Source of the DNA: an uncultured Candidatus Saccharibacteria bacterium
GTDB lineage: Bacteria > Patescibacteriota > Doudnabacteria > UBA920
Length of the DNA: 64,000 nucleotides
Assembly: GCA_964505635.1 (NCBI GenBank)
Contig: CAZDIP010000002.1
Span: 37,736 to 101,735 of the forward strand
Direction of reading: 5' to 3'
Positions 6,848 through 23,686 of this stretch are shown piece by piece. The position numbers and the translations under genes were made by a program. Position 1 is the first letter of the stretch. Every line of letters begins with the position of its first letter. The notes under the pieces were generated by a model. The model made no database searches. It was not told where the DNA came from and saw nothing but the letters and a program-made list of their open reading frames with translations.

Positions 6848-6918
6848 ATATTGTTCGAGCGAAGTCGAGAACCAATAAAAAATTTTCTTCTCCACTTTGG
6901 TCGAAAACTAAAATTTTT

Positions 6919-7632
6919 ATGCTACAACTTTTATTTGCTGTACTTGCCGGCATGCTCACTGTGGGCGCGCCATGCATACTCCCCCTCCTCCCAATTCTTT
7001 TGGGCGCCAGCGTAGGCCAAAACAGCAAGACCAGGCCATTATTTATAGCCTTTGGATTCATATTTACTTTTTCATTGGCAGGCTTGTTTTTATCAGCCCT
7101 AGTGCAAAGTTTTATGATAGCGCCCGACGCCTTAAGAAATGCCGCAGTTTTTATGCTCGGCCTATTCGGCTTACTGCTTTTATGGCAAACGCCTTTTAAA
7201 AAACTGGCTGTTTATTTATCCGGCGCCGTTACCAGCGCAAGCTCGGCCGCAGGGCAAGCAGGCAGCGGAAACTTGGGGGGATTTGTTTTAGGAGCGCTCT
7301 TAGGCATAATTTGGACGCCTTGCGCCGGGCCGGTTTTAGGAAGCATATTAACTTTAATAGCCACTCAAGCCGACCAGGTCCGCGCGACTATATTAATAGT
7401 CGCTTACGCGCTTGGAGCGGGAATTCCAATGGTTTTAATTGCCTACGGCGGCCAATATATTACCCAAAAAGTCAGATGGCTGGCCAATTACTCGGAAGCT
7501 TTGCAAAGAATTTTTGGAAGTCTTATTATTGCCCTGGCCATAGCCATGTACTTTCAGTACGACTTAATTTTGCAGGCGAAATTATTGGAATTTTTTCCTG
7601 CCTGGAATTTAGCTAACCTAATTAAACTTTAA
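6919..7632 (+). CDS. ccdA: Cytochrome c biogenesis / disulfide-electron transporter CcdA (DsbD family transmembrane domain)
   Basis: 237 aa polytopic protein; conserved Cys pair in transmembrane helices (GAPCILPLLP ... TPCAGPVLG). Confidence 0.85.
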   Translation: MLQLLFAVLAGMLTVGAPCILPLLPILLGASVGQNSKTRPLFIAFGFIFTFSLAGLFLSALVQSFMIAPDALRNAAVFMLGLFGLLLLWQTPFKKLAVYLSGAVTSASSAAGQAGSGNLGGFVLGALLGIIWTPCAGPVLGSILTLIATQADQVRATILIVAYALGAGIPMVLIAYGGQYITQKVRWLANYSEALQRIFGSLIIALAIAMYFQYDLILQAKLLEFFPAWNLANLIKL

Positions 7633-7751: not shown

Positions 7752-8801
7752 TTGGACCCATGTAAATATAGAATGAAATATTTACCATACATATTAATTG
7801 CTTTAGTGATTTTTTTAGCCGCCGGTTTTTATTTAGACCGAGCTAACCGCTATACAGAGCCAGTCCCGCTTACCATTGATTCCAGTTCAAACAATATAAA
7901 TAAACTTATGCCCACGGAGTTAAAAAATTATGGCCCGGCGCCTGAATTTAAAGGCATCACCAAATGGCTTAATAGTGACCCGTTAACCCTTGAAGACTTA
8001 AAAGGCAAAGTTGTTTTAGTAGATTTTTGGACATACTCATGCATAAACTGCATTCGCACCTTGCCTTACGTAACCAAATGGTACGACACTTATAAAGACC
8101 AGGGCCTGGTAATTGTAGGCGTGCACACTCCTGAATTCGCTTTTGAAAAAGTAACCGAGAACGTGCAAACGGCAATAAAAAGATTTAACATAAATTACCC
8201 GGTAGCGCAGGACAATGACTTTCAAACCTGGAATGCCTACTCAAACCGCTATTGGCCCGCGCATTATTTAATAGATAAAGAAGGCAACGTAGTTTATACG
8301 CATTTTGGCGAAGGCAATTACGGTATTACCGAAAACAATATCCGCTATTTGCTCGGCCTAAATTCCCCCGCAAATACCAAAAATCCGACCTTCGGAAAAG
8401 TGGGAAGCCCTGAAATGTATTTTGGCTTAAGCCGCTTGGAAAATTTGAGTTCAAAACAAACAGCCTCGTCTCACCCAAATATTTATAATTTTCCCGATCA
8501 TTTAAAATTAAATGAATTCGCTTTAAACGGAGAATGGAAATTTGAAAACGAAAAAACCGTACTAACAAAAGGATCGGGAATTATTCGCTTAAAATTTAAA
8601 GCCGGCAAACTGCATATGGTAGCCTCGTCAGACAAGCCGCAAGACTTAAAAATTACTGTTGATGGAAAAATTAAGGCAGCTGTGAAAGTTCAGATGTCCG
8701 AGCTTTATACCTTATTTGATTCCAACGATTATTCGGAGCATACTATAGATATAGAAATTCCCGAAGCCGGTTTTGAGGCGTTTACTTTTACATTCGGATA
8801 G
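7752..8801 (+). CDS. TlpA/ResA-like thiol-disulfide oxidoreductase with about 140-aa C-terminal extension (DipZ C-terminal-like); likely true start at the Met near 7773
   Basis: Transmembrane anchor; VVLVDFWTYSCINCIRTLPYV (CxxC redoxin); the CcdA + redoxin + C-terminal domain architecture mirrors mycobacterial DipZ split into two genes. Confidence 0.8.
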   Translation: MDPCKYRMKYLPYILIALVIFLAAGFYLDRANRYTEPVPLTIDSSSNNINKLMPTELKNYGPAPEFKGITKWLNSDPLTLEDLKGKVVLVDFWTYSCINCIRTLPYVTKWYDTYKDQGLVIVGVHTPEFAFEKVTENVQTAIKRFNINYPVAQDNDFQTWNAYSNRYWPAHYLIDKEGNVVYTHFGEGNYGITENNIRYLLGLNSPANTKNPTFGKVGSPEMYFGLSRLENLSSKQTASSHPNIYNFPDHLKLNEFALNGEWKFENEKTVLTKGSGIIRLKFKAGKLHMVASSDKPQDLKITVDGKIKAAVKVQMSELYTLFDSNDYSEHTIDIEIPEAGFEAFTFTFG

Positions 8802-9529: not shown

Positions 9530-11500
9530 TTAATTTTTCACTCTTTTCAAAGACATGTAAATTACGCCGAACAATAAAATTAAAACCCCAGGATAAATAA
9601 TCATTCTAAAATCCCGGGATTTTTGTATTTGTCCTGCATTTAAATTTGAATAACTCTCCGACAAATCCGAATTTTGTTTATCTGTTTGGCTTAAAGCTAA
9701 AATTTGAGTCTGTAAATCCGCCAAAACAGATTGCATCTCCAAAATTTTTGCCTGTAAATCTTTTACCTGATTAATCAACTGACCAGCTTGACTGCGACTC
9801 AAAATTGACTGGCTCTTGTCAGTGTTTGTTATATTTTCTTCTAACAAAGCCTTTTCCTCTTCATCGGTAGTGGCAGACAAAACCAACGCATTTGGCTCTT
9901 GTGGGGTCAGCTGGGTTGTCCAAGCATATTTTTCACCGTCCAGACTAGCATACGACATGCCGGCTTTGGCCACCGGATAGCTCACCTCAAAAACCAATCG
10001 GCCAAAAGCATCAAATAACTTCAAAGTTTGTCCGGCATTGCTTAAACGAGCAGGCAAGTCATCTTCATAAACGACAAAGTAAGCTTTGCCCGGCAAAATT
10101 GTGCCTTGATGAAAAACTTTTTTCCTCCCGCCCAAAGTTAGGGTCATACCTTCCAAATCTATATTTTGATCAGTCAGATTATAAAATTCCACAAATTCTT
10201 CCTGTTCGCCTTCAGGTCTCGGCAAAATTTCACTAATTACTATTTTGCTTATTTCAGAAACTTGATCGTTCGGCAAATTGCGAGTCGGAATGCCCCAACT
10301 CCACTTATTATCTTTATTTTTTATCCAGGACAAATTTTCTTCGGCATCTTCATAAATTACAGAATCCAGCATTTTTTTCTGCGGAGAAAAAAGTTTCAGC
10401 CTTTCCTGTCCGCTGTTATTTAAAATTAGAGACTCTTTAGGGAAGTCTATTGCCAAAACTCCCATTGGCGGGATCAAAAAGCCTTCCGGCACCGCCCATG
10501 CGGATTCAGTAAAATCATCTTTAATGCCATCGGCAAAATAATACCCGCTTAAAGTTACCGTCGCGTAACCGGGATTATAAACTTCCGCCCATTCCCTGCC
10601 CTGGTCTTCGCCCAAAGGATTGGGAAAAATTTCGTTAATTTGCAAAAAATTACTGCTTTGTAAAGTTTCGGGTGCAGAACCGCTAAAGGAAGACCCGCCA
10701 CCCCCGCCGGAATTGGAAAAATTTCTTATCGGAGGCTGCCAAACTCCGTTAACCAGCTCAAAAATCCCGTCATCATAAGCTTCGGCCAAATACGCCGCCT
10801 GGTCTGCAAGGCTGCTGTCTGAAAAATATAAATTAACTTCATCACCGCCAGTATTGTTCAAAGCAAATGCCTCGGCGGGTAAAATAATTTTTTTAGTCTC
10901 TCCCGGCAAAATACTGCCTGACAAAATATAGGCGCTGCTGCCCGGCCCTGTGCCGGTATTTTTGTCGTCAATAATCCAGCCGTTTAGCAGCACCGGTTTT
11001 TCTTCGCTGCTTTTTATTTCCACCCATTCATTACCTTCATCTGATCCGGTTGGATTGGGTAAAAATCTAAAAATTTTAATATTCATACTTGTTGTTAAAA
11101 ATTCAGGCTGAGCCGGAACCGATGCATTAATGGTAAAAACTCCTTCATTTAAGTCGGAATAGCAAAAACTTTTTCTGGCTGTTCCCAAAGCCATGGTCAA
11201 TACCGGATTTTCCAACAAACTCCCGCAGGGAGCTGTAGCCGGAGAAGAATAAAACTGTCCGCTTACAGAAGACGAAAGCAAACTGACCCGGGTGGTGGTA
11301 ACTGCATTGAATTTCAGACCTTCGTCAGTCTGCAATTCTACGGTAAACACCTCCGACATAGTTTCAGGTTTTACTTTTTGAGGCTCAGATATAATTTTTA
11401 TCTTTACAGCCTCCGTTGTCTGGGTCGTAAAATAAATCGCCGCAAACGCAAAGAAAACCAAAAGCCCGCGCATTTTGGAAATATCCTTTTTAATATTCAT
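9530..11500 (-). CDS. Secreted, C-terminally membrane-anchored surface protein with three lamin-tail domains (LTD)
   Basis: 656 aa; signal peptide; LTD signatures FLPNPTGSDEGNEWVEI, INEIFPNPLGEDQGREWAEVYN, ISEILPRPEGEQEEFVEFYN; coiled-coil; C-terminal transmembrane helix. Confidence 0.75.
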   Translation of the reverse strand: MNIKKDISKMRGLLVFFAFAAIYFTTQTTEAVKIKIISEPQKVKPETMSEVFTVELQTDEGLKFNAVTTTRVSLLSSSVSGQFYSSPATAPCGSLLENPVLTMALGTARKSFCYSDLNEGVFTINASVPAQPEFLTTSMNIKIFRFLPNPTGSDEGNEWVEIKSSEEKPVLLNGWIIDDKNTGTGPGSSAYILSGSILPGETKKIILPAEAFALNNTGGDEVNLYFSDSSLADQAAYLAEAYDDGIFELVNGVWQPPIRNFSNSGGGGGSSFSGSAPETLQSSNFLQINEIFPNPLGEDQGREWAEVYNPGYATVTLSGYYFADGIKDDFTESAWAVPEGFLIPPMGVLAIDFPKESLILNNSGQERLKLFSPQKKMLDSVIYEDAEENLSWIKNKDNKWSWGIPTRNLPNDQVSEISKIVISEILPRPEGEQEEFVEFYNLTDQNIDLEGMTLTLGGRKKVFHQGTILPGKAYFVVYEDDLPARLSNAGQTLKLFDAFGRLVFEVSYPVAKAGMSYASLDGEKYAWTTQLTPQEPNALVLSATTDEEEKALLEENITNTDKSQSILSRSQAGQLINQVKDLQAKILEMQSVLADLQTQILALSQTDKQNSDLSESYSNLNAGQIQKSRDFRMIIYPGVLILLFGVIYMSLKRVKN

Positions 11501-11573
11501 ATGTTTTTTGTTTCTTGCTAAGTAAGCTAACTATAAATAGTATGGCTCTAAAATCATGGTCGGTCAAATCAAA

Positions 11574-12161
11574 TTATTCCAAAAGCTCTGCCCTTACAAT
11601 ATAACGTTTCAATGCAGTTCCCAAAGGCCAGGAAGTCTGCAAAGTTAAAATTTTCTTATCTTCCGTATCCTGACTAAGTAAGTAAGTATCTTGCGAGGAA
11701 GCAATAAATTTTTCCTTAACTTCATAAGTAAAAATTTGCCCCGATTCGCTGCTTACAATAATTTTTGCGCCCAATTCTACTCTGGGCAAAAGCGCAAAAA
11801 CCGTCTTGTATTCGCCGGGCGAAACTTTTAAATCCGAGGAGTGGCCGAAAATATAGGAATTTCCGGTTTCACCAAACTTGGCGGTGTTCGGATAGTGTAC
11901 CACGCCATACCTTAAGGCCGATTGAAACAAATTTTCATTTACCGCATCTACATATACCACGGGTGCCTCTATGCCCAAGGTTGGTATTAAAAGACTGTTG
12001 GATAAAATTTTATCTTTTTCTGAAAGTAAAATTTCCGGCTTGAGACTATGCGGTCGCAAACTATGTTTTAAATTCAAAAATACAAATTGCCAGTTGAGTA
12101 ACAGAACCAGCAAAATTAAAAAGCCAAAGATTATAACAAGTTTTTTTAAAACTACCTTCAT
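11574..12161 (-). CDS. Sortase-family protein with Ser at the catalytic Cys position (TLQTSWP instead of TLxTC)
   Basis: 195 aa; transmembrane anchor; sortase His motif NSYIFGHSS, 70 residues later LTLQTSWP (codon TCC), then KRYIVRAEL (conserved Arg); LIPTLGIEAPVV β-strand typical of sortases. Confidence 0.65.
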   Translation of the reverse strand: MKVVLKKLVIIFGFLILLVLLLNWQFVFLNLKHSLRPHSLKPEILLSEKDKILSNSLLIPTLGIEAPVVYVDAVNENLFQSALRYGVVHYPNTAKFGETGNSYIFGHSSDLKVSPGEYKTVFALLPRVELGAKIIVSSESGQIFTYEVKEKFIASSQDTYLLSQDTEDKKILTLQTSWPLGTALKRYIVRAELLE

Positions 12162-12193
12162 TAAATCCCTTTCAATTACAGCACAGGCAGTTT

Positions 12194-13741
12194 CTAAAGT
12201 TTGCTGTTAAATTTATATGGTAAATTTACCATTAAAATAACAACTAAAAAAACTACTAGCAGGGCACCTGCGCTCACGCCGGTTCTGGGCAATTGCGTAG
12301 CCTGGCCTAACACCATAGGCTTGTTTTCCGGCAAACCGAAATTTGCCGCGCCCGGTTGGTTGGTAAAATCTCCTGCCACCTGTCCGCTTAGCGGCACAAA
12401 AGTACTGCCGCCGCTCCCCCCAGACCCTCCGCCGCCGGATCCGCCGCCGCCCTCATCTAAGCTGCTCGTGCAAATCTGTCCTTGGGGACAAACAACCTGA
12501 ATTTGAACGCCAGATGTATTATTGGACAAATTCGGATCAGCCTCGGCTGACTGAACTGTAGCCGTATTTACAATACTGGTTCCAACTGAGACACTACTTT
12601 TAACTTCGGCCAAAATGGTTAAACTTGCGCTGCTCCCACTTGCCAAATTGCCGACTGTCCAGACATTGGGAACAAAACCACCTTGTGTGGAAGTGGAAGA
12701 AATAAACAAAAGTTCTGGGGGTAATACATCTGTCATTATTACGTTTTCTGCTGTATTAGGACCACTGTTAGACACGCTAAAAGTATAAATTAAAGTTGAG
12801 CTGGCTGTGCTAGTAGGAGCGCTGACCGTTTTCAACAAACTTAGATCAGCTACACCACCGCTCCCACCGCCGCCAGACGAACACTCCCCGTCCGTACACC
12901 CGCCTGACCCTTCCACAAAACGATTGCCAAAATTTATATCTTCGGCTGTAAAATTGTCAACAAAAACTTCATATTTATAGCCTGCTCCGGCTCCTGGTAA
13001 AGTCTGCTGCCAATTGTTCTGCAAAACTTCCCGTACTGTGTAATTTCCAGCCGGCAAAAATTCAAACTCGTAAAATCCAGTGGTGGTGGCAGTGGTGGTA
13101 ATTTTTTCTCCAAAATCATAAATAGCATTGCTGTTCTGGTCAATGTAGATTTGCCAGCCGCCAAGGCCTATTTCCGAGTTATTTTTTACGCCGTCGCCGT
13201 TTAAATCGTTAAACTTAATGCCCTGTATAAAACCCTCGCCAAAAACTTCCACCGTATTGGTCGTAACTGTAATTTTGCACTCATAATCCCCGCCCTTAAC
13301 CACTATGCCGCCGTCATGAGCCTGGGCCAGCTGCCCGGAAATTCCAGGCACATTTAACTTTACCCGCCAGTTATCCGCATTATCTAAAATAGAACTTAAA
13401 CTTGAAGTGGCCAGTGTGTCAGGCTCATTGGGCAAATCAATGTTTTTTATTTCCAAAAACGGACATAAATTCTCTTTACCTCCGACTGCCTCTAAGACGG
13501 TGTTATAAGTCGCTTGCTTAGAAGAAGTATCCAGCTGGACAGTATATGTTCTGCTTAAATTCTCACCCGGGTAAACGTTGCCAAAAGGAATCGCGGTGTC
13601 TGAAACCAAAAGCACCTGCAAAGCCGCGTTAACTTTCAAAATATTGCTCTGCAGCAGGCTTAAAACTGCTATCAAAACAACACTGGCAATTGCTGCCGAC
13701 AGCTTAACCAAATATTTAGTTTTCATATTTAACTGTCTCAT
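12194..13741 (-). CDS. Cell-surface protein with LPRTG sorting signal, DUF11 and SdrD-B-like repeat domains and Gly/Ser linkers
   Basis: 515 aa; N-terminal signal; FGNVYPGENL TasA/camelysin-like motif; DUF11-like (NSGPNTAENVIMTDVLP); SdrD B-like (FNDLNGDGVKN); C-terminus TQLPRTGVSAGALLVVFLVVIL + KFNSKL. Confidence 0.75.
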   Translation of the reverse strand: MRQLNMKTKYLVKLSAAIASVVLIAVLSLLQSNILKVNAALQVLLVSDTAIPFGNVYPGENLSRTYTVQLDTSSKQATYNTVLEAVGGKENLCPFLEIKNIDLPNEPDTLATSSLSSILDNADNWRVKLNVPGISGQLAQAHDGGIVVKGGDYECKITVTTNTVEVFGEGFIQGIKFNDLNGDGVKNNSEIGLGGWQIYIDQNSNAIYDFGEKITTTATTTGFYEFEFLPAGNYTVREVLQNNWQQTLPGAGAGYKYEVFVDNFTAEDINFGNRFVEGSGGCTDGECSSGGGGSGGVADLSLLKTVSAPTSTASSTLIYTFSVSNSGPNTAENVIMTDVLPPELLFISSTSTQGGFVPNVWTVGNLASGSSASLTILAEVKSSVSVGTSIVNTATVQSAEADPNLSNNTSGVQIQVVCPQGQICTSSLDEGGGGSGGGGSGGSGGSTFVPLSGQVAGDFTNQPGAANFGLPENKPMVLGQATQLPRTGVSAGALLVVFLVVILMVNLPYKFNSKL

Positions 13742-13744
13742 AAT

Positions 13745-16582
13745 CTAGTTGGAAATTGGCGCTTCCGAAACCAACTGGTTGTCGGGGTTTTGTTCCGGCT
13801 CTTTTGCCGCGGAAACCTCGTCCAGGGGTTTTTCTGGAGACTCTTCTATTTTAACCGGCTCATCCGGTTTGGGCGCTTTAGGTGTGTTTGGCTCCTCCTC
13901 GGTTAAGGCTGGTTTTTGAGCGTCTTGTGTTAAATCAGAAGCAACGGTTTCTTCATCTGCCGCCTTTGTGTCAATAATTTCTGGCTCAGCCGGCTCTGTA
14001 GCTGGCTCTTGGTTTAAAGCCGGCTCTAAACTTATGTCAGGCACAGCGCTTGCCATAACCTCTTCTTCCGAAGGCTCAGAGTCAAACACAATGCTGACGC
14101 TGGGCGCGGTATTTGAATCTATAAATTCGTCGTTGCTTTCCCCGGGGCTGGGATCGGGGTCTATCCAATTATTTGTTCCGTCAGGCATGCGGGTAAAAGA
14201 TTTGTTATCAGGCACGGATGCGCCGTAGTCGTAAGTTCTTTGGTCCACCAAAGAAGCTCCTTGCCAAAAATGTCCGTTGTAAAGCTTAACGGTATCGGTA
14301 CCGTCGTTGTCTAAATCAAAATCAGTGTCGCCCTCCCGATAAACAACCAAAAAACCGCCAGGTGCCACAGTTGTCGTGCCGGTATTGGTGTTTTCGGGTT
14401 TAATAAACAACTCATGGTAATTGTACAGGTTATAAGTAGCGCTTAAGCTGTCCAAACGCGCGTTATGCAAAGCGTCAGCACGAGTAAAAATAGCCTGCCA
14501 TTTTAAATACCTGCTATCCGGCAAGCCGGCAGCATTTAAATCCATGCCGCTTATATCGTCGCAAGCGCTAAAAGCGGAAAAATTCACCCCGTCGTTGGAG
14601 GTTGCGGCCTGAATGCAGACGTTACCGCTTAGGGAATTGCTTTCCGTCCAGGTTAAATTCTGCCAGTCAGCCCGATTGCCCTCGCCCGCGTCCAAAACCG
14701 TTTCTAAAGTACCGCTGCCAACCCCGCTTGAAAAAACCACGCTGCTTGAGCTGATTCCCAAATTAGAGGTTAAGCTGCTGCTCGCAAAATCCGAGTTGCT
14801 GGTCCAGGTTTTATTTTGTGCACTTCCCGGAGGTAGAAAATCATCGTACAAAACATAACCTTCCAAACTGAGCGGAGTGGAAGATCCATTATAAATTTCT
14901 ACAAATTCACCATCTAAACTGCCGCCAACACTACCTTGATCTGAGCCTGAAGGATTAGGTAAAAATTCATTTATCAACAACTGGTTTAAAGGGGAAAATA
15001 CCGGGCCGCAAGAAATAACTGAAGGTAATGGCCTGAAATTTACGGTCACGTTGCTGTCTAAGTCAATTGCGGGGCCGGTTAACGAAGTGCCTTCTTTTGC
15101 ATAAATTGCCAAAAGCGTACGGTTGGAATTAATATGCACATCCCCGCTTTGAGCGAAAAGTACCACGTCCCCAAGGTCAGAATTATTGCTTTCTGTTTCA
15201 ATGGCTGCGTCGTCGCCCGATTTGGGCAAAGAAGTGGAAATGAGCAAAAAAGTCCCTTTAGTGCCCGCGCCGTTAAATGCCACGTTGGCGCGGATGTCAA
15301 TTACCCCCTCCACAATAATTACGCCAAAGCTGTCGGCAAAAGCAGGATCCTGATTTATAACCACGTTGCTGTCTATTTTTAGATTACCATGCACATACAA
15401 AGTACCGTGCACATTTACTATATTATTGTTGCCAATTTCCAGGTTTCCCATAATTTCCGAAGGTCCCAAGTCTATAATTCCGCTGCTGCCTGGTATAACC
15501 AAACTTCCTAAAACCGTACCGCCGTCGTTGGCTTTGTCCTGCCAAAAAGCATTGTTAATTACCGGCAAGTCCTGGGCGGCTGACCCTGTGTTCGCACTCC
15601 CCGAAATAGTAAAGTTGCTGCTTTCTATGCTGCCGGAAACCGTCACGTCCCCGTTTATGTTTCGGTTTGCGCCTCCTCCGTTGGCTTCTAAATTATGATT
15701 GCCTTTTACTTGCCCGTTCACCGTAACATTAGCGGAAACATAAATATCGCCAAAGCTGTCGTTTGGTCCCGCAGCCATTAATGCTGTGTTTTCCGGGAAA
15801 TCAATATTTATTGGCTCGCACAAATCCGCCTGGGCAAACTGGTAAATTTTTATGTTAATCAGGCTAAAATGGCTGCCCACGCTGTCGCCGTCACAAGCCA
15901 CAGCCTTAACCACGCTGGTTTGGCTTACGGGCAAAGGCGGAATGGAATTTTTAAGGCCGCCGTTAGGGCCGCCGCAGTAAGGGTCGGAAAATACGTCCGG
16001 ATCAGTGCCTAAACCAACTGTATAAAAAATATGCGTGGCGTCTGAATCGCTGTCGCTAAATTCCACGTTAATGGAACTTGCGTAATTACCGCCGTCAGTA
16101 TTGTTCCAGCCAATATCCCCGGGCGGGGTTAAAACCGGCGGATCTATTTGCGCTAACGCGGCAGTGGTATTAATAATGTGCGCCTCAAAAGCCTGGAACA
16201 AAGGCAATAAAACCAAAACCGGAATTAATACCACGGCGGTATTATAAACGGTTTTAGATAAAAACTTTTTGAACAATGGTGGTTTTACCGTATTGGCCTG
16301 CGGCTTTAGTCCGTGGCGTTCGAAAATTTCCGCTTTTAAAACAGCCTCATTTACCACCCGCACCGGCACCCTCACTGCTTTTGGTTTTACTCTGCTAATT
16401 ACAAAGGGACTTACAATGCTTTTGTTATTTTTTGTCCTTACAATCTTTTTTACCACAGGCTTACCAACAAAAGTTTTTAAAGCCGCTGATTTTCGCTTTG
16501 CGGTCTTTGCCCGCGCCAAAACCAGACTTTTTTTCAAAGTCCTTGTTTTAACAACTTTTAATTGTTTGTCTTTTGCGGGCAT
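13745..16582 (-). CDS. Giant surface protein (945 aa): Lys-rich N-terminal tail, SipW-cognate-like signal/anchor, β-helix-like repeats, LTD domain, acidic Pro/Glu-rich C-terminus
   Basis: N-terminal roughly 100 aa Lys/Ala-rich; hydrophobic segment with FQAFEAHIINTTAALAQI (matching AFSAFEAHVINVTAR of the neighbouring genes); LTD motif INEFLPNPSGSDQG...EFVEIYN. Confidence 0.7.
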   Translation of the reverse strand: MPAKDKQLKVVKTRTLKKSLVLARAKTAKRKSAALKTFVGKPVVKKIVRTKNNKSIVSPFVISRVKPKAVRVPVRVVNEAVLKAEIFERHGLKPQANTVKPPLFKKFLSKTVYNTAVVLIPVLVLLPLFQAFEAHIINTTAALAQIDPPVLTPPGDIGWNNTDGGNYASSINVEFSDSDSDATHIFYTVGLGTDPDVFSDPYCGGPNGGLKNSIPPLPVSQTSVVKAVACDGDSVGSHFSLINIKIYQFAQADLCEPINIDFPENTALMAAGPNDSFGDIYVSANVTVNGQVKGNHNLEANGGGANRNINGDVTVSGSIESSNFTISGSANTGSAAQDLPVINNAFWQDKANDGGTVLGSLVIPGSSGIIDLGPSEIMGNLEIGNNNIVNVHGTLYVHGNLKIDSNVVINQDPAFADSFGVIIVEGVIDIRANVAFNGAGTKGTFLLISTSLPKSGDDAAIETESNNSDLGDVVLFAQSGDVHINSNRTLLAIYAKEGTSLTGPAIDLDSNVTVNFRPLPSVISCGPVFSPLNQLLINEFLPNPSGSDQGSVGGSLDGEFVEIYNGSSTPLSLEGYVLYDDFLPPGSAQNKTWTSNSDFASSSLTSNLGISSSSVVFSSGVGSGTLETVLDAGEGNRADWQNLTWTESNSLSGNVCIQAATSNDGVNFSAFSACDDISGMDLNAAGLPDSRYLKWQAIFTRADALHNARLDSLSATYNLYNYHELFIKPENTNTGTTTVAPGGFLVVYREGDTDFDLDNDGTDTVKLYNGHFWQGASLVDQRTYDYGASVPDNKSFTRMPDGTNNWIDPDPSPGESNDEFIDSNTAPSVSIVFDSEPSEEEVMASAVPDISLEPALNQEPATEPAEPEIIDTKAADEETVASDLTQDAQKPALTEEEPNTPKAPKPDEPVKIEESPEKPLDEVSAAKEPEQNPDNQLVSEAPISN

Positions 16583-16591
16583 GTAATAAAA

Positions 16592-17035
16592 TTATTTTTC
16601 TATATTTTGCAGTTTGGGCCCGAGGCTTCTGGCAATAACTCCGAAAAACGGAATTCTGAAAGGTTTGTCTTTTATGTAAACCATCCGTCCAACCACGTCT
16701 TTCGGGTTTACAGGCGCGTCTTCGGAATTGTTGGCGTCTCCTTTGGTAATCAGCATGCTGCCCTGTCTCCTTATAAGCCTGTGAATAGTAAAGCCCTGAG
16801 CGTTTTTATAAATAATTATTTGCCCCACTTTCGCTTCTTCTCCGCTTATGCCTTTCATTAAAATTAAGTCGTTGACTTTCAGCTGCGGCCACATGGAACC
16901 GGAAGTAATGGTGGCCAAAGGGTATGGAGTTTTTAAATAATGCGACAAAATTTTCGGGGTGTAATAAACAGCCAAACCGACAAATGCCAAATAAATAATA
17001 ATTTTTAAAACTCCTATCGCGATCTTTTGTAACAT
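16592..17035 (-). CDS. Type I signal peptidase, SipW/archaeal-ER type (S26B)
   Basis: 147 aa; transmembrane helix then ITSGSMWPQL (catalytic Ser in SGSMxP), conserved His in FTIHRLI, GDANNSED box; short single-domain form typical of SipW. Confidence 0.85.
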   Translation of the reverse strand: MLQKIAIGVLKIIIYLAFVGLAVYYTPKILSHYLKTPYPLATITSGSMWPQLKVNDLILMKGISGEEAKVGQIIIYKNAQGFTIHRLIRRQGSMLITKGDANNSEDAPVNPKDVVGRMVYIKDKPFRIPFFGVIARSLGPKLQNIEK

Positions 17036-17068
17036 TTGCTTATGAACGGGATTAAAAATTTTTAATTT

Positions 17069-17587
17069 CTACCATGGCTTGGGAATTTGGAAAACTATAA
17101 CTTTACCCCGATAGTAGCGGTATTCGGCAGAATTGGGAGTGCGGACAGTAAACTCCAGCTTTTCTCCCTGCCCGGATTTTAGCGTAAAATAATTTTTATC
17201 AACTTTCATTAAATCGCCAATCTCGCCGAATTTCCATACCATAATGTAACTGGAAACTTTGTACGGGCTTTGGTTGACCAAACTGACCGTCCTAACCGCG
17301 GTTTTGTCTTTGGGCAAGTCCCCAAAATCCAAACGCTCGCCGGTAGGGTTAACCCCTATTTTATCCGAATCAACCACCTGCACCAAAGCATCGTATTTTT
17401 CCGCGTTAACATACTGCACGGCCAGAAAAATAAACGCCAAAACCAGAATTATCCAAGCGGCCACGCGTTTTTTTGGCCTGGGTCTGGTTATCTCAGATTT
17501 TAATTCCGACAAAAATCCCCGCTGTTGCTCCCTTTCCATAACAGCCTTAGGCTTCATATGGCTGGGCATGTTTTCAAATGGATCCAT
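17069..17587 (-). CDS. Type II membrane-anchored accessory protein (hypothetical), immediately upstream of sipW-like
   Basis: 172 aa; cytoplasmic N-terminus, one transmembrane helix, about 110-aa extracytoplasmic β-rich domain; position analogous to TapA in tapA-sipW-tasA. Confidence 0.45.
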   Translation of the reverse strand: MDPFENMPSHMKPKAVMEREQQRGFLSELKSEITRPRPKKRVAAWIILVLAFIFLAVQYVNAEKYDALVQVVDSDKIGVNPTGERLDFGDLPKDKTAVRTVSLVNQSPYKVSSYIMVWKFGEIGDLMKVDKNYFTLKSGQGEKLEFTVRTPNSAEYRYYRGKVIVFQIPKPW

Positions 17588-17689
17588 AAATTTATATTGT
17601 TAAATAAAATTTGAAATTATTTGACAGGGTTAGCGTGCTTTCATCCCTCATCCCTGGCCCCAAAACAGGGCCAAAGGAAGCTATGAAAG

Positions 17690-19126
17690 CTAATTATTCT
17701 CGCAAACTGCCAAGCTGGCCAGTACGCTTTGCAGCAAAGTAAAGTCTGACGCGCTGTAGTAGTAAGAGGGCGCTGAGGCAACGGTGTTTTTTAAGAAGTC
17801 TTCAGTGCCCGCGGTTACGCCTACCCCGACCACATAAATCTTAATGCCGGCTGCTTTGGCCGCGGCGGCTGCCGCAGCTGCGTCGCCGCCCGCTGTGGGC
17901 TGGCCGTCGGTAATTAAGACTATAAAGTCAGGCGAGGTCGCGTCGTTACGGTCGCGCGCGCTCGCTAATTCAGCCGAGGCTGTATCCAAAGCCTGTTGCA
18001 AATTGGTCAAGCCGCCGGCTAAAAGAGCGTCTATGGCTGTATGAAGCGGCGTAGAAGAGCCGGTTAACTGCACGTCCAAAGTCGCGTCAGTGGAAAAACT
18101 GACCTGTGCGCCGTGAGGGCCAGTGTCGCTTAAACCCAAAGCCGTGACAAAGGCGTGAGCCGCTGTCTTCATGGTATTAAGTTCGGTGTCGCTTATGCTG
18201 CCGCTACGGTCTATAACCAAAGCTAAATCCAGCTGGTCGCTGCAAAGACCGCCGCCGGGCAAAGAAATGCCGGCCACTTCCACCCACAAATCACAGCCAA
18301 ACACTTTGTGTTCATTTTCTATAGGCTGGGTAAAAGCATTAGCCTGTTCCAAGGTGGTGTCTAAATTGCCGGTTTCCCTGCGGACAAAGTCCAGCCAGTC
18401 CTGGGCGCAATAGCCGCCAAAGCATGGTACGGCCAAATCTATCACCCACTTGTCCTGCGTATCCTGGTCTTGTTTGGACAAACGCCCCTTAGTGTCCAGC
18501 CAGGAAACCGTGCTGGTTCCCACCACAAAAGGCGTGTGGAAAGACTTGGTTACTTGGTCTACGGAAAGAGGTCCGTCTATATCCAGTTTTTCCCCGTCTT
18601 TGGAAATGTAGGGGCACAAGTTAGGCAGCAAACCCCAGCTTTCTGCTTCGTTTATATTAACTGTCTGAGTGTCGTCTACAGCTAAAACTCTGGGCGCTTC
18701 CCCGCAATCCCAGTAATAGCTTTCAACCACTTCGTTAGTGGAAGGGTCATCGCCGAATTTTACATGCGCGGTGCGCGTGTACATATGCGCGCCGTCCGGA
18801 CCTACTGAGTTGTCAAACGAACCGCCGTTGTTGGTGGTTATGGCGCACTTGGGTTTTTGGCGGATAAAGTATTCCACGTCGTCTACGCGGTTTTCCGCGA
18901 GGAAAGACGCGGACAAATTCACGTCAATGGTTTTTTCCAAATGCTCCTGCGGAAACACGGTGCCAAAATCCAAAAACTTGACCGGCACGTTAAGCGCGTT
19001 TTCTATCCTGGCCGTTACGTTTATAACGTGCGCTTCAAAAGCGCTGAAGGCCGCGGCGCCGGCGAGTATAACACCCAAAGTCCCGACGCCCAATATTAAT
19101 TTGTTGAGTATTTTTTTCATGTTCAA
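17690..19126 (-). CDS. Secreted vWA-domain protein with SipW-cognate-like signal peptide and Cys-containing N-domain
   Basis: 478 aa; LGVILAGAAAFSAFEAHVINVTARIENAL; FGTVFPQEHL motif; N-domain shared with the 19339-20181 paralogue; C-terminal vWA with MIDAS DRSGSIS and ITDGQPT. Confidence 0.8.
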   Translation of the reverse strand: MNMKKILNKLILGVGTLGVILAGAAAFSAFEAHVINVTARIENALNVPVKFLDFGTVFPQEHLEKTIDVNLSASFLAENRVDDVEYFIRQKPKCAITTNNGGSFDNSVGPDGAHMYTRTAHVKFGDDPSTNEVVESYYWDCGEAPRVLAVDDTQTVNINEAESWGLLPNLCPYISKDGEKLDIDGPLSVDQVTKSFHTPFVVGTSTVSWLDTKGRLSKQDQDTQDKWVIDLAVPCFGGYCAQDWLDFVRRETGNLDTTLEQANAFTQPIENEHKVFGCDLWVEVAGISLPGGGLCSDQLDLALVIDRSGSISDTELNTMKTAAHAFVTALGLSDTGPHGAQVSFSTDATLDVQLTGSSTPLHTAIDALLAGGLTNLQQALDTASAELASARDRNDATSPDFIVLITDGQPTAGGDAAAAAAAAKAAGIKIYVVGVGVTAGTEDFLKNTVASAPSYYYSASDFTLLQSVLASLAVCENN

Positions 19127-19167
19127 TCTTTTAAATAATTTACTTTTCTTAATTTTCCTTTCTTTCC

Positions 19168-19195
19168 CACTATATTACTAGATAGTAATATAGTG
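19168..19195. repeat. 28-bp perfect palindrome CACTATATTACTAGATAGTAATATAGTG (copy 1 of 3)
   Basis: 13-bp inverted arms with a 2-nt spacer; identical copies at 23796-23823 and 24318-24345; lies about 45 bp upstream of the vWA gene start. Confidence 0.9.
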
Positions 19196-19338
19196 TCGAC
19201 CTTTGCCCGGTTAAGCCGGATTTTTTACTTTACATTCAGCCTCCTAATATAAATGTCACCTTGCATAAAATTAATCCCTCTTTCCCTCGCCCCTCCTTTC
19301 CCTTAAAAAGGAAGAGCGAGGTATAAGAAAAATTAATC

Positions 19339-20181
19339 TTATTCTGCTGTGGGGGTGCTAGTTACACCATTTACTTCTACCCACAAATCACAGCCAAAAA
19401 TTTTGTGTTCGTTCTCTATTGGCTGAGTATATTCAGACGGATTAGCTTCCGGATTAACACCTTTTACAAAGTTTTCCCAATCCTGAGCGCAGTAGCCGCC
19501 AAAGCACGGCACAGCCAGGTCTATTACCCAGTTGTCAGTTGTGTCATTTGGTTTAGACACAGTTCCGCCGACATCTGTCCAATCAATTGTCTGATTTTGT
19601 GCATCCAATACCCAAGGTTTATGGAAAGACGCCAATGCTCCATCTTCGTAAGTTAAAGGTTCTCTGGAAACAATTTCAGAATGCTTGGACAAATACGGGC
19701 AAAGATTTGGTAAAACACCCCAAACCGCCTGAGAAAGTTCAGCATTTTCAGTTGGGGTTACAGGTCTTGTACCGCAATCAACATAGACATTATCTGCCTG
19801 TTCAACTGTTTCTGTGGCTGGATTATCACCAAACTTTATATGACCTGTCGCAGTGTATTCATGTCCATAAAAAGTCTGTCCATCCGGGCTGGTCAAAGCA
19901 CATTTTGGCTTTTGGCGGATAAAATAACTTACCGTGTCAACTCGATTTTGGTCATCAGCCAAAAACGAACCTGACAAAGTCACAGCTAAAGGCTTTTCCA
20001 GTTTTTCCTGCGGAAAAACCGTGCCGAATTCTATAAAATCAATCGGCACATTCAAAGCATTTTCTATCCTGGCCGTTACGTTTATAACGTGCGCTTCAAA
20101 AGCGCTGAAGGCCGCGGCGCCGGCGACTATTACGCCCAAGGTACCTAGCGAAAGTGTAATTCTATTTAGTATTTTTTTCAT
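19339..20181 (-). CDS. Secreted paralogue of the vWA protein N-domain (SipW-cognate-like signal, no vWA domain)
   Basis: 280 aa; N-terminal about 60 aa nearly identical to the 17690-19126 product; conserved YFIRQKPKCA, VPCFGGYCAQDW, TQPIENEHKIFGCDLWVEV. Confidence 0.7.
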   Translation of the reverse strand: MKKILNRITLSLGTLGVIVAGAAAFSAFEAHVINVTARIENALNVPIDFIEFGTVFPQEKLEKPLAVTLSGSFLADDQNRVDTVSYFIRQKPKCALTSPDGQTFYGHEYTATGHIKFGDNPATETVEQADNVYVDCGTRPVTPTENAELSQAVWGVLPNLCPYLSKHSEIVSREPLTYEDGALASFHKPWVLDAQNQTIDWTDVGGTVSKPNDTTDNWVIDLAVPCFGGYCAQDWENFVKGVNPEANPSEYTQPIENEHKIFGCDLWVEVNGVTSTPTAE

Positions 20182-20744: not shown

Positions 20745-20962
20745 CCAAAACCCGAGAATTAGCTCTAAAAACCGTAAATACTAGTTATTTTCTTCATTAC
20801 TGTTACAATTAATCCTATTTAATAAATCGTTTAATGCTTGCATGCATTATATAACGCGTAATAAATAAAAATGTTGCTCTTAAATTTTTATGTACAAAGA
20901 AAAGCGGCCCACACCCCCGAAAGGATGTGAGCCGCCGCCGTGTTCGCCCGGTTAGGGGCGCT

Positions 20963-21529
20963 TTAGGCTTGGTTGTTGCGATTGCTGCGAAGTCGCCCGA
21001 TCGCGATCAGCGAGAGGCCGATGAAGGCGAGCGCGGCGGTGTAGGGTTCAGGAACATCTTGATCTGGTACCCTATCGCCATACAAACGAAACTGCATGTT
21101 CGCGTTGGCGTTGGTTGCAGTACCAGCAAAAACAGCCGAAACCGCAACATTGAAGTTGCTTTGGAAATTGGCCACATAGTCAACCACCGAGATGGCGATT
21201 TGACCTGTTGATCCGTTGAGCGGCCGGTTCACATCGTTGACCACGAGACCGCTCAAATCCCACGGCAGCAATGGCGAATCCAGAGCGAAGGTCGCTGACC
21301 CGGGCGGATTGAAGGGGTCATATGTCACATCCAACGCGTAGTTGAGCTCAATGGTCAAATTCGTAAACCCGACCGCTGAACCCAGCCCGGTGCAAGTCGT
21401 TGAACCATTCGGAGGCACGTTGGTAGCTGTGCAGGAAGACGACGAGATCATCGCTCCTTGCGCCGGAAGAGCAAGTGTCGCGACGGCCATGAGAAGGCCC
21501 GCGAGAAACGAACACACTTTCTTACGCAA
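20963..21529 (-). CDS. PEP-CTERM sorting-domain secreted protein (GC-rich)
   Basis: 188 aa; signal peptide; C-terminus VPEPYTAALAFIGLSLIAIGRLRSNRNNQA (PEP motif, transmembrane helix, basic tail); about 60% GC. Confidence 0.75.
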   Translation of the reverse strand: MRKKVCSFLAGLLMAVATLALPAQGAMISSSSCTATNVPPNGSTTCTGLGSAVGFTNLTIELNYALDVTYDPFNPPGSATFALDSPLLPWDLSGLVVNDVNRPLNGSTGQIAISVVDYVANFQSNFNVAVSAVFAGTATNANANMQFRLYGDRVPDQDVPEPYTAALAFIGLSLIAIGRLRSNRNNQA

Positions 21530-21859: not shown

Positions 21860-22555
21860 CTAGCTATTACGGGTAGGGCGACGGAGCCGCCAGTGGGCTC
21901 CAAGAGCGAAAAGTGAAGCGCCGATAACGGCGAAAGTGCCGGGCTCCGGCACACCTTCGTCGTTTGGGGGTGGCACGGTGGCCACCACCGGCTGAGTTCC
22001 AAACCCCAGCGCCACGTACGTCAAAGTCGTGTCCACCGTTGCGCCTGGGATATTGTAAACCAACTGAACTGAGCCCTGAGCGAACGGGTTATGAGGCCCG
22101 TTCCCCAAAATGGATGCATTCCCGGTGTACACGCCGCCCGGGCCGGGTTGACCAATGAGCACATCGTCCGGTCCCGAAGACCCAAGCGCGGTCGTGAGAA
22201 ACCCAGGCCCGGACTGGTACCAGTCCGGATTTCCCAAGACAACGACGAAGGTGCCATCGCTGGCTACGTCTATCATGGTACCAGTGACAGACGAGAGCGT
22301 GCCCACCAGGCCGCCCAAGACCGTGAAGTTCAGTTGCGAAACGCCGCCCATGACGCTGGGCGGATCAGCCAAGTTGTTCGTCAACGACAACGTCAACGTG
22401 TTCGCGCTGAACGTGTAGTTGATTGTCACGTCCTGCGCCTGCCCACCGACCGTTTGGGTGAAGTTGATCGTTGCCGCCTGTGCCGGCAAAGACGCCAGCA
22501 ACAGGAAGACGATGATTACGGCCATCGCCAGCCGCTTGCCCTTATGCTTTCGCAT
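21860..22555 (-). CDS. PEP-CTERM sorting-domain secreted protein (GC-rich)
   Basis: 231 aa; signal peptide MRKHKGKRLAMAVIIVFLLLASLPAQA; C-terminus VPEPGTFAVIGASLFALGAHWRLRRPTRNS. Confidence 0.75.
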   Translation of the reverse strand: MRKHKGKRLAMAVIIVFLLLASLPAQAATINFTQTVGGQAQDVTINYTFSANTLTLSLTNNLADPPSVMGGVSQLNFTVLGGLVGTLSSVTGTMIDVASDGTFVVVLGNPDWYQSGPGFLTTALGSSGPDDVLIGQPGPGGVYTGNASILGNGPHNPFAQGSVQLVYNIPGATVDTTLTYVALGFGTQPVVATVPPPNDEGVPEPGTFAVIGASLFALGAHWRLRRPTRNS

Positions 22556-22852
22556 TAGGCCTCCTTCAAACTAACACGATTTGCCGCTTGCCTCCGGGCA
22601 GACTCGAGTTCTGCATACCCTGCCCAGAAGGCAAACAAAAGCTGCCTCTTGTTAGAAAACAGCCTTAAAGCATGTAAATTATACATAATTATAAACAAAA
22701 AATCAATCCTTGCCTTGACTAAGCGGCTCACATAAGTTACAATATAACGTTCAAAAAGGAGGAAACTAGCGAAATCTAGGAACTCGTTTTTGTCGTTCTG
22801 CCCCGCAGCGAGCAGGGCATACCAGAAACCAGAAAAAACAGGAGACACTCAA

Positions 22853-23686
22853 ATGAAGGCTTTTGCCTTTTTTATTTCTGTACTCGCGCTGGCGGTCACG
22901 CTCAGTGCTGCGCCTACAATCATGGTGGAAACCACCCTGGCACCCAATGCGTTTGGAAGCCCAAGCTATCCGGCCTGGGAAACCAACGCGGTCAACGCTA
23001 TGATTGGCGGCCTTACGAGCAATGGGACACCCGGCACCCCCACGTACTTCCAAACCCTGGGAGGACCCGTTCCGGCCTCCTGGTTGACTGTGACGTCCTT
23101 CCCATCCTGGCTCGGAACCGCCGACCCAGGAACTACCTTCGGACCGGCATTTGCAAGTGAACTCGGTAACAGAGGCGCGTTCCCACTCTACATCAACGGC
23201 AACGGAACACAATTCTCCATCAGCCAGCTCGCCTTCAACGCATTCAGCACCGACCCCGGCAATCTGCTCGGGTTCAGCTTTGCGGTTGGTTCGTACAACT
23301 ACGGAACTGGCTACGTCGGTATTCTGAAGGGTGGTGACAACACCCTCGGAACCGGTGACGACACCTTCATTACCGCCGGTCCCAATACGCAGATGGTCGA
23401 TGCACTTGCCGGAAGGGGAAGCGGCAACGCGCTCTGGCCGTGTGGACCGGGGGATCTCTCCCCCTGCGCCACAACCGCGGAACGCCAAGCTGCAATCGAT
23501 AGCATGGCAGCTAATATGGCAGGCTACTCCTTCACGGGCACCTACACGCTGATGGGTGCGACTGGCGGCGAGCTCGCAAGTGCGAGCGCAACCATCTACA
23601 CCGACGGAGAGGTTCCCGAGCCAGCCACTATGGGACTCATCGGTACCGCGCTCATCGGCCTCGCTCTGGTGCGCCGCCGCTCCTAA
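22853..23686 (+). CDS. PEP-CTERM sorting-domain secreted protein (GC-rich); start set at MKAFAFF, which is preceded by AGGAG
   Basis: Signal peptide MKAFAFFISVLALAVTLSAAP; C-terminus VPEPATMGLIGTALIGLALVRRRS; the ORF track's longer ORF begins at 22790. Confidence 0.75.
   Translation: MKAFAFFISVLALAVTLSAAPTIMVETTLAPNAFGSPSYPAWETNAVNAMIGGLTSNGTPGTPTYFQTLGGPVPASWLTVTSFPSWLGTADPGTTFGPAFASELGNRGAFPLYINGNGTQFSISQLAFNAFSTDPGNLLGFSFAVGSYNYGTGYVGILKGGDNTLGTGDDTFITAGPNTQMVDALAGRGSGNALWPCGPGDLSPCATTAERQAAIDSMAANMAGYSFTGTYTLMGATGGELASASATIYTDGEVPEPATMGLIGTALIGLALVRRRS

Follow-up and report, generated by a model that had tools for sequence, protein, structure and literature searches.

The stretch of DNA considered here, called the window throughout and meaning the whole 64,000 nucleotides that were analysed (contig CAZDIP010000002.1), contains between positions 9530 and 20181 an eight-gene locus that is probably the local version of a Patescibacteria-wide cassette for the export and assembly of surface proteins with a private class of signal peptides. 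The core of this proposal, namely this signal class together with the linked, dedicated peptidase and its partner protein, is regarded as very probable. Patescibacteria account for a large share of bacterial diversity, and the cultivated ones live attached to other microbes; to our knowledge, almost nothing has been learned about their attachment surfaces beyond type IV pili. The cassette is widespread: it has been met in at least 75 species-level genomes, and some 600 protein clusters are counted at 50% identity. It is also tightly conserved and wholly unannotated. In the proposed mechanism, a signal peptidase of 147 amino acids (aa), probably with or beside a 172-aa membrane protein, would read an extended sequence box as the c-region of the signal peptide and would cut after an invariant V-T-A, which would control the release of the proteins from the membrane. 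The released immunoglobulin (Ig)-like modules would then bind each other and box-less module relatives to give an adhesive fibre or ordered coat showing variable domains. In the source genome, this structure would be tied to the wall via a 515-aa LPRTG protein with the same module and a serine-type sortase, and a 945-aa LTD protein would be a further box-dependent cargo.

An earlier reading made from the letters alone (the sequence-only reading) had described eight co-directional genes on the minus strand, and the listing of open reading frames (ORFs) in the 64-kb window has confirmed them:

19339–20181, minus strand: 280-aa module-only protein, boxed signal peptide and Ig-like domain
17690–19126, minus strand: 478-aa module and vWA protein, TTG start with an ATG two codons later
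17069–17587, minus strand: 172-aa single-pass membrane protein, transmembrane (TM) helix and beta-sandwich
16592–17035, minus strand: 147-aa S26B signal peptidase I, TIGR02228
13745–16582, minus strand: 945-aa giant LTD protein with the box and without an Ig module
12194–13741, minus strand: 515-aa LPRTG protein with degenerate box, minimal module, SdrD_B and DUF11
11574–12161, minus strand: 195-aa sortase-fold protein, PF04203, Ser177
9530–11500, minus strand: 656-aa tail-anchored LTD protein, three LTD and a C-terminal TM segment

The gaps between these genes, which had been given as 3–210 bp, measure 212, 102, 33, 9, 3, 32 and 73 bp in order from the 280-aa gene, so that only the upper bound needs correction.

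The signal class is defined by a box of the form A-FEAH-(V/I)x-NVTA-x-IE, which is located directly after the hydrophobic core of the signal peptide. According to the translations, the 280- and 478-aa proteins carry AFSAFEAHVINVTAR and the 945-aa protein carries FQAFEAHIINTTAA, and a special N-terminal signal class common to these three proteins, as proposed in the sequence-only reading, has thus been recognised. Its assignment to the SipW-cognate class has had to be abandoned, as none of the 280-, 478-, 945- and 515-aa proteins matches TIGR04088 with its N-terminus at E ≤ 10, while the N-terminus of TasA, used as control, has reached 40.8 bits (cut-off 19). The recurring motif FG.V[FY]P.E.L that had been pointed out in the 515-, 478- and 280-aa proteins is readable in their translations as a post-signal anchor, FGTVFPQE(K/H)L in the 280- and 478-aa proteins and FGNVYPGENL in the 515-aa protein. 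The boxes of the window are placed as follows:

aa 27–40, nucleotides (nt) 20062–20103, minus strand: box of the 280-aa protein, AFEAHVINVTARIE
aa 29–42, nt 19001–19042, minus strand: box of the 478-aa protein, same signal as in the 280-aa protein
aa 131–144, nt 16151–16192, minus strand: box of the 945-aa protein, AFEAHIINTTAALA, with IDPPVLTPPG directly after it

The N-V-T of the box (N-T-T in the 945-aa protein) also forms an N-glycosylation sequon, which is maybe a coincidence of the V-T-A cleavage motif.

The conservation of the box has been followed in a survey of 75 loci, taken from one genome per species and all belonging to Patescibacteria by name or content (numbered loci below are from the related genomes), together with the window. 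Several of the metagenome-assembled genomes with the cassette bear the titles Gammaproteobacteria, Bacteroidales or Saccharibacteria (L051, L056, L066, L078, and many among L008–L080); their gene content is of the Parcubacteria type and the titles are probably unreliable. The survey has yielded 204 box ORFs with 201 distinct segments, in which, with the F of FEAH taken as position 0, the following residues have been counted:

position −1: A in 198/201 segments
position 1: E in 201/201 segments
position 2: A in 197/201 segments
position 3: H in 199/201 segments
position 6: N in 197/201 segments
position 7: V in 197/201 segments
position 8: T in 188/201 segments
position 9: A in 201/201 segments
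position 10: variable
position 11: I in 187/201 segments
position 12: E in 154/201 segments
position 13: N in 158/201 segments

A box of such constancy has been found to head at least four unrelated classes of mature protein, namely the Ig module, LTD giants, C...RSxGYWKNH proteins and SdrD_B proteins; the anchor pattern F[GE]xV[FY]P follows it in 133 of the 204 ORFs, and most of the other 71 have no Ig module after it. In the loci that contain the peptidase, all box ORFs (174/174) lie within 8 kb of it in the stretches of about 20 kb examined, 47 of 51 loci have a boxed gene right behind the peptidase as well, box genes thereby standing on either side of the enzyme and its partner, and two to five box genes occur per locus. 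In the 64-kb window there are exactly three box ORFs, none of them outside the locus. Because the box stands on unrelated proteins which are all encoded near the peptidase, it behaves as a portable sorting signal with a cognate enzyme, and as such it offers a recognisable mark for listing the surface cargo of any genome of this kind. One box class absent from the window comprises proteins of about 330–420 aa, for which many genomes have the gene right behind that of the peptidase, and in these proteins a Cys and an RSxG[YF]WKNH-like motif come after the box (L018 9500–10696, L027 12361–13467, L072 13896–14888, L077 13416–14672, and many more); for these RSxGYWKNH-type box proteins no Pfam match has been obtained.

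The enzyme itself, which the sequence-only reading had taken for an S26B signal peptidase with an SGSMxP motif, belongs to this family indeed, as it reaches 76.6 bits with TIGR02228 (sigpep_I_arch, cut-off 51.85; orthologues 82–86 bits) and its Ser, His and Asp are conserved. It consists of an N-terminal TM segment, SGSMWP with Ser47 (nt 16886–16903), His85 (nt 16775–16786) and GDANNSED with Asp100 and Asp106 (nt 16718–16741). Among 56 orthologues, S45, S47, M48, W49, P50, H85, R86, G99, D100, N102 and D106 are at least 95% conserved, and S47, H85, D100 and D106 are those that we take, by analogy with Sec11 and SipW, to be the catalytic Ser, His and Asp residues. The peptidase is minimal, with 140–147 residues across the orthologues, and scores 38.2 bits against the SipW equivalog NF046067 (cut-off 190). 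Together with its boxed proteins, it makes a defined enzyme–substrate pair, which lends itself to testing in a heterologous host.

The same enzyme could also be the general signal peptidase I of the cell, with the box as a merely lineage-typical c-region and the linkage as a matter of co-expression. CPR (candidate phyla radiation) genomes are reduced, no LepB-type gene has been detected in the 64-kb window by a motif and phmmer scan, and the one LepB candidate, a Peptidase_S24 gene about 7 kb upstream in the groundwater genomes L001 (2108–2746) and L003 (2826–3395), has turned out to be LexA (108–113 bits), all of which would suit a single housekeeping enzyme. We consider this explanation quite unlikely nevertheless, as the 656-aa LTD protein, the module proteins of about 650 aa and the ResA-like protein have ordinary, box-less signals, as the box keeps to the 8-kb neighbourhood of the peptidase, and as its conservation is far above that of a generic c-region.

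Directly upstream of the peptidase lies the gene of the 172-aa protein, for which the sequence-only reading had proposed a type II membrane protein in the place of TapA. The position has been confirmed, and a TM helix joined to a sandwich has been predicted; any likeness to TapA beyond position has failed to appear. Neither TapA nor SPC22/23 is among the best 60 structural matches of the protein. The family has 96 members found so far and matches nothing in Pfam or NCBIfam. Its proteins begin with a variable basic N-region, followed by the TM helix (aa 39–61) and a PapD/ASH/MSP-like beta-sandwich of about 100 aa, and they share an invariant juxtamembrane Q-[YF]-x-N-A-x-K-Y-x-A-L-V-Q-V (N-A-x-K-Y... 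at nt 17372–17407) and N-P...L-D-F-G-D. The AlphaFold2 model (predicted local distance difference test score, pLDDT, 90.5) has a seven-to-eight-stranded sandwich joined directly to the TM helix, and the modelled fold matches the PapD-like/ASH/MSP Ig superfamily and also resembles the WxL-interacting protein. Between the 172-aa family and the module family, hhalign has given a weak 24%, with the TM segment, the strand and DFGD/EFGT aligned in register. For the 172-aa protein, the conceivable roles are those of a second subunit working with the peptidase, of a chaperone or receptor that serves the modules close to the membrane, and of a base subunit. In eukaryotes, SEC11 pairs with the type II membrane subunit SPC22/23, and the locus resembles the eukaryotic signal peptidase complex in that an S26B subunit is combined with a small single-pass protein with a beta-sandwich ectodomain.

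The association of these genes, which the sequence-only reading had expected in related CPR genomes, has been kept to a high degree. In the 55 informative loci, those in which the sequence runs on for 1.5 kb or more beyond the last module gene, orthologues of the 172- and 147-aa genes lie on the same strand as the module genes in 54 cases and immediately downstream in 52, and the lone exception starts at a contig end. Six homologue loci share the gene order module plus vWA, module-only, shorter module paralogue, a 164–173-aa gene and a 140-aa gene, and continue with a gene of about 850 aa with SdrD_B and LTD and then one of about 650 aa. By BLAST, the 164–173-aa and 140-aa genes are orthologues of the 172- and 147-aa genes, the 850-aa gene is an orthologue of the 945-aa gene, and the 650-aa protein begins, in its first 200 residues, with a divergent module copy. 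Doudnabacteria loci, namely L028, L057, L058, L060, L061 and L073, have supplied the nearest relatives of the window genes, and these best homologues suggest a Doudnabacteria-like origin; no record has been met for the window proteins by exact-sequence look-up. That the system had not been described before, as had been supposed, agrees with our searches: the module, the box and the 172-aa protein have no relative in Pfam, NCBIfam or the PDB, and no paper in the literature searched gives an account of such a system or ties SipW, TasA, donor strands or sortases to Patescibacteria in this sense. Homologues of PF12389, a different family, do occur in Patescibacteria (PMC9245690).

Two candidate cleavage sites with an invariant Ala at −1 are found in the box, A|FEAH and NVTA|x. 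The first matches the position of the TasA site (mature TasA starts at A28) and has mostly Phe, Leu or Met at −3; the second has Val at −3 and Ala at −1. By the −3/−1 rule, Val/Ala makes a textbook site of signal peptidase I, and Phe, Leu or Met at −3 is atypical. The box-less relatives end their signals as ...ILKVNA|A (515-aa type) and ...LQVSA|SHVTID (650-aa type), and their sole canonical V-x-A lies 13–17 residues before the F[GE]xVFP anchor, while the V-T-A of the box sits 14 residues ahead of the anchor in 123 of 135 cases. Because the box-less paralogues have their only canonical V-x-A at the same place, cleavage after NVTA appears likely to be preferred over cleavage at A|FEAH. Therefore, most of the box would probably be removed as an extended, enzyme-specific c-region.

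A cut at A|FEAH would have a very different consequence, as the strand FEAHVINVTARIE would then be kept and inserted into the Ig module of the next subunit, giving a donor-strand fibre of the kind formed by TasA and TapA (PMC9674648, PMC10151520). The 945-aa protein, having only the strand, would nucleate or cap such a fibre like TapA, and the box-less module proteins of 515 and about 650 aa would be acceptor-only ends. The box is in fact an amphipathic strand with alternating hydrophobic and polar residues; strand-only, strand-plus-module and module-only proteins coexist; the box segment in the model of the 280-aa protein is undocked, with a pLDDT of about 60; and the aligned segment K-Y-x-A-L-V-Q-V of the 172-aa protein is predicted with high confidence to be the first strand of the sandwich, docked in cis. 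The top Foldseek matches, none of them significant, are donor-strand subunits (CanX, AggA, TasA and DUF1102), and hhalign lines up FAAFE with WAAFN of TasA. Against these features stand the atypical −3 residues of A|FEAH, the fact that the only canonical site of the box-less paralogues is at the V-T-A place, the presence of the box on proteins without an Ig module, and the invariance of both faces of the strand, which fits recognition by an enzyme better than a co-evolving interface. All tests for the TasA family have also been negative: no window protein has matched PF12389/NF046066 (TasA/camelysin) at E ≤ 0.1 in Pfam or NCBIfam, hhalign of the 47-sequence module profile against TasA has given a probability of 15%, and a TasA-like jelly-roll has not been recovered for the module from the model and Foldseek. 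The acceptor-only fibre ends have been weakened as well, as the alignment of the 515- and 650-aa proteins shows a degenerate box with the same V-x-A site. We thus hold a donor-strand fibre to be unlikely, and the box is more probably a removed recognition element than a donor strand of the TasA type. What has survived from the echo of the TasA fibre in the sequence-only reading, after the negative outcome with TIGR04088, PF12389 and the fold, is the principle of an S26B peptidase placed among its own substrates.

The module that follows the box in the 280-aa protein comprises about 240–260 aa and is Ig-like, and a 47-sequence alignment of its family displays six invariant Cys, many invariant core residues and, right after the hydrophobic core, the invariant A-F-E-A-H-.-.-N-V-T-A-.-I-E-N. 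More than 1100 homologues of the 280-aa protein have been found at E ≤ 1e-3, and those with names are all Patescibacteria, including Ryanbacteria, Paceibacterota and Parcubacteria. An exhaustive profile search with the module has returned 604 clusters at 50% identity, of which the best 150 have been listed and are covered by the taxonomy. Neither the 280-aa protein nor the first 290 residues of the 478-aa protein match Pfam or NCBIfam, the module profile has found nothing among the PDB sequences, and Foldseek with the AlphaFold2 model of the 280-aa protein (pLDDT 88.4, predicted template modelling score 0.79; residues 1–40 at a pLDDT of about 60) has given nothing at E ≤ 1e-3. Between distant lineages, the module is 55–61% identical, compared with 46–48% for the peptidase and 42–46% for the 172-aa protein of the same loci. 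The C-terminal fusions among 51 sampled longer relatives include SpaA_2 (16), vWA (8) and MopE-type repeats (6), as well as LTD, DUF4215, beta-helix, ice-binding-like, laminin-G, TSP3, PA14, CBM and also lectin-like domains, which gives the module the look of a shared handle to which varying binding domains are joined. Cargo-less, module-only copies, usually in two versions, are present too in nearly every locus.

In the window, the 478-aa protein is a paralogue of the 280-aa protein with a C-terminal vWA domain (aa 300–468, nt 17723–18229; PF00092, 3.5e-26, 92.9 bits), and the DRSGS of its metal-ion-dependent adhesion site, with the DxSxS motif present, has been read at aa 306–310 (nt 18197–18211), in agreement with what had been claimed for this protein. 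It is 51% identical to the vWA-fused orthologues in L001, L003 and L005.

Because of the cargo-less copies, the two to five box genes per locus and a conservation above that of the enzyme, the modules can be argued to associate with one another into a fibre or coat; we give this a little less than an even chance, with the 280-aa protein as candidate for the major structural subunit. Alternatively, each module might dock singly on an envelope receptor, for example the PapD-like 172-aa protein or the wall-anchored 515-aa protein, and thereby display separate adhesins without any polymer. One N-terminal module with many C-terminal binding domains does recall cell-wall-binding handles, and the modelled fold of the 172-aa protein, with its resemblance to the WxL-interacting protein, would suit a receptor. 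Anchors without passengers make little sense, however, and the cargo-less versions are found in nearly every locus; the module is moreover conserved above the expectation for a simple handle. Such non-polymeric display thus seems improbable. The conserved extracellular module is a target for labelling in cryo-electron tomography and for host-attachment studies.

The 515-aa protein connects the module to the sortase arm of the locus. It has a degenerate box, LLQSNILKVNA|A (nt 13625–13657), and a minimal module (aa 13–164, nt 13250–13705), which hhalign aligns to the module alignment with 99.3% (E 2.7e-20), followed by SdrD_B (nt 12968–13213) and DUF11 (nt 12503–12847, 1.7e-27). The LPRTG with hydrophobic tail that the sequence-only reading had noticed on this DUF11/SdrD-like protein beside a sortase-fold gene has been seen in the translation and the profiles (nt 12197–12292); the protein ends in LPRTGVSAGALLVVFLVVILMVNLPYKFNSKL, with K..K at the end, and has the features of an LPXTG sorting signal with a weak basic tail of two Lys.

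The neighbouring 195-aa protein, previously called sortase-like, is a sortase homologue by profile (PF04203, 9.4e-23, 80.7 bits versus a cut-off of 26.6) and aligns to the solved sortases 4d70 (E 4.9e-10) and 8t28; the catalytic Cys of a sortase is lacking. In TLQTS (nt 11631–11645), Ser177 occupies the position of the catalytic Cys of 4d70 and 8t28, and the protein contains no Cys at all, while His107 (FGHSS, nt 11835–11849) and Arg186 (LKRYIVRA, nt 11589–11612) are kept. It remains below every NCBIfam sortase class cut-off, with 46–47 bits for class D (140–165), 37.6 for class E (160) and 28.5 for class C (160). The motif TLQTS[WY]P is found in 119 of the 120 closest sortase homologues, and 93 have no Cys whatsoever; the Ser form thus marks a clade and not a local defect. 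In the Doudnabacteria locus L058, a module-bearing protein ending in ELPRTG...GRKKF is followed by a Ser-sortase (6458–7042), and outside the cassette, in L082–L086, Ser-sortases come right after large proteins that end in LPRTG or LPVTG with a hydrophobic-basic tail. It is accordingly probable that the 195-aa enzyme acts as transpeptidase on the LPRTG protein, its cognate substrate. The pattern also suggests that Patescibacteria possess a functional clade of serine-type sortases, of which no description has been met in the literature searched. A large clade of cysteine-less sortase homologues that are still paired with LPXTG substrates has in this way come to light. Because no more than 5 of the 75 cassette loci contain a sortase homologue of any kind, two of the five keeping the Cys, the sortase arm is, to judge from these gene contents, a lineage-specific add-on.

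SipA/LepA pilus chaperones are inactive signal-peptidase homologues, and the sequence-only reading had also heard an echo of Gram-positive sortase pili, in which a vWA tip adhesin, LPXTG pilins, a polymerising sortase and a SipA/LepA-like chaperone act together. A vWA protein, an LPRTG protein with SdrD_B and DUF11, a sortase-fold gene and a peptidase homologue are indeed united in one locus. An LPXTG motif is found on one of the eight proteins and not on the vWA protein, however; the sortase has 28.5 bits against the 160 of class C, has Ser for the catalytic Cys and occurs in 5/75 related loci; and the peptidase keeps its catalytic residues, unlike the inactive SipA/LepA. Taken together, a pilus of this type is highly improbable here, and the echo has faded.

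The 945-aa protein represents a second class of box-bearing substrate, with a repeat-rich middle, an acidic Pro-rich tail and no Ig module. It contains a CHB_HEX_C-like domain (CHB_HEX_C_1, nt 15884–16096) and one LTD (nt 14699–14986, PF00932, 44.9 bits), and in 22 loci an orthologue comes right behind the peptidase and carries this box and then IDPP (IDPPVxTPPG in the LTD giants). Ahead of its hydrophobic core, about 105 Lys/Arg-rich residues are found within aa 1–130 (nt 16193–16582); the region round IFER in this n-region is conserved in the orthologues (KIEIFERN in L001), and because of this conservation the long cytoplasmic n-region is considered real and not a mis-called start. The 656-aa protein has an ordinary signal peptide without the box, three LTD (4.1e-35, PF00932, 120.9 bits), a coiled-coil-like segment and a C-terminal TM anchor (nt 9548–9604). 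A full-length orthologue of it has been found only in L061 (1e-117), 1.4 kb downstream of the peptidase, and the similarity elsewhere is generic to LTD. The profile search has hence upheld the LTD proteins of the sequence-only reading; the beta-helix that had been attributed to the giant protein has no Pfam match in the 945-aa protein itself.

Several points weigh against the cassette and the mechanism proposed for it. The co-transcription of the eight genes has been deduced from the short gaps, and the dedication of the peptidase from gene linkage only. The cleavage position has been derived only from the −3/−1 rule and the paralogue alignment, with A|FEAH as a second site with invariant Ala, and a c-region of nine residues would be unusually long. 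The likeness of the 172-aa protein to the module is weak (hhalign 24%), and the contact between subunits is drawn only from copy pattern and conservation. The sortase and LTD genes, finally, are absent from most of the related loci and are maybe neighbours rather than parts. In its fullest form, the cassette would build a new CPR appendage, a disulfide-rich, Ig-like fibre or lattice whose assembly is gated by an S26B enzyme and a PapD-like partner that read a 14-residue box, with interchangeable adhesin heads (vWA, SpaA_2, LTD, PA14, lectins) gripping host cells and, in some lineages, wall anchoring by serine-nucleophile sortases; this picture is possible and we offer it only tentatively.

Among the known systems, the closest likeness is to tapA-sipW-tasA of B. 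subtilis, where a peptidase is embedded among its private substrates (PMC9674648, PMC9245690). Both have an S26B peptidase in an operon with substrates that share a special N-terminal signal, a small accessory gene directly upstream of the peptidase and extracellular beta-sandwich products. They differ in that the signal of the window lies outside TIGR04088, its substrates lack the Peptidase_M73/TasA jelly-roll, its peptidase falls well short of the SipW equivalog cut-off and has no C-terminal extension, and the box is probably removed and not used as donor strand as in TasA; the cassette type of the window also has many more substrate classes and modular adhesin fusions. The private-peptidase principle of SipW and TasA would thus be extended to a different fold, signal and phylum. 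The archaeal AbpA/AbpB bundling pili, the CanA/CanX cannulae and the DUF1102 tubes have given beta-sandwich scores at noise level without detectable homology, and abpA has no linked dedicated peptidase (PMC9245690). From chaperone–usher pili, the system is set apart by a 172-aa protein with one domain instead of two and a membrane anchor, and by the absence of an usher and an outer membrane; the likeness in fold is generic to the superfamily. To sortase/LPXTG anchoring, the 515-aa protein with LPRTG and tail and the sortase-fold gene next to it bear a clear likeness, the pairing being kept in other genomes, whereas the Ser in place of the catalytic Cys and the scores below all NCBIfam class cut-offs mark the difference.

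One further feature has been recorded upstream of the locus:

20903–20936, minus strand: strong terminator-like hairpin with a 15-bp stem including 9 G-C pairs, which closes the upstream PEP-CTERM gene

The transcription unit probably has its 5' boundary at this hairpin, after which comes a leader or intergenic region of about 720 bp. Promoter-like matches upstream of the locus have not exceeded the shuffle expectation and have led to no promoter assignment, promoter and terminator scans inside the locus have stayed at the shuffle level, and an Rfam scan of the window has detected only two tRNAs, both far from the locus.

In the region beyond the hairpin (20963–21529, minus; 21860–22555, minus; 22790–23686, plus), three small proteins end in VPEP with a hydrophobic segment and an Arg-rich tail, and the protein at 22790–23686 passes the PEP-CTERM domain model with 24.5 bits (cut-off 16). 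The G+C content of this region is 54%, compared with about 44% in the surroundings. PEP-CTERM/exosortase cargo is unexpected in a CPR-like genome and could be due to horizontal transfer or an assembly chimera.

On the other side, just outside the locus, a DsbD/CcdA-like membrane protein and a ResA-like CxxC thiol-disulfide oxidoreductase are encoded (6919–7632 and 7752–8801, both plus strand). The same pair adjoins a Ser-sortase in the Doudnabacteria genome L084 (7728–9593), and in L001, L003 and L005 the cassette has Redoxin genes nearby. A tie between the six-Cys module and these disulfide-handling genes is possible.

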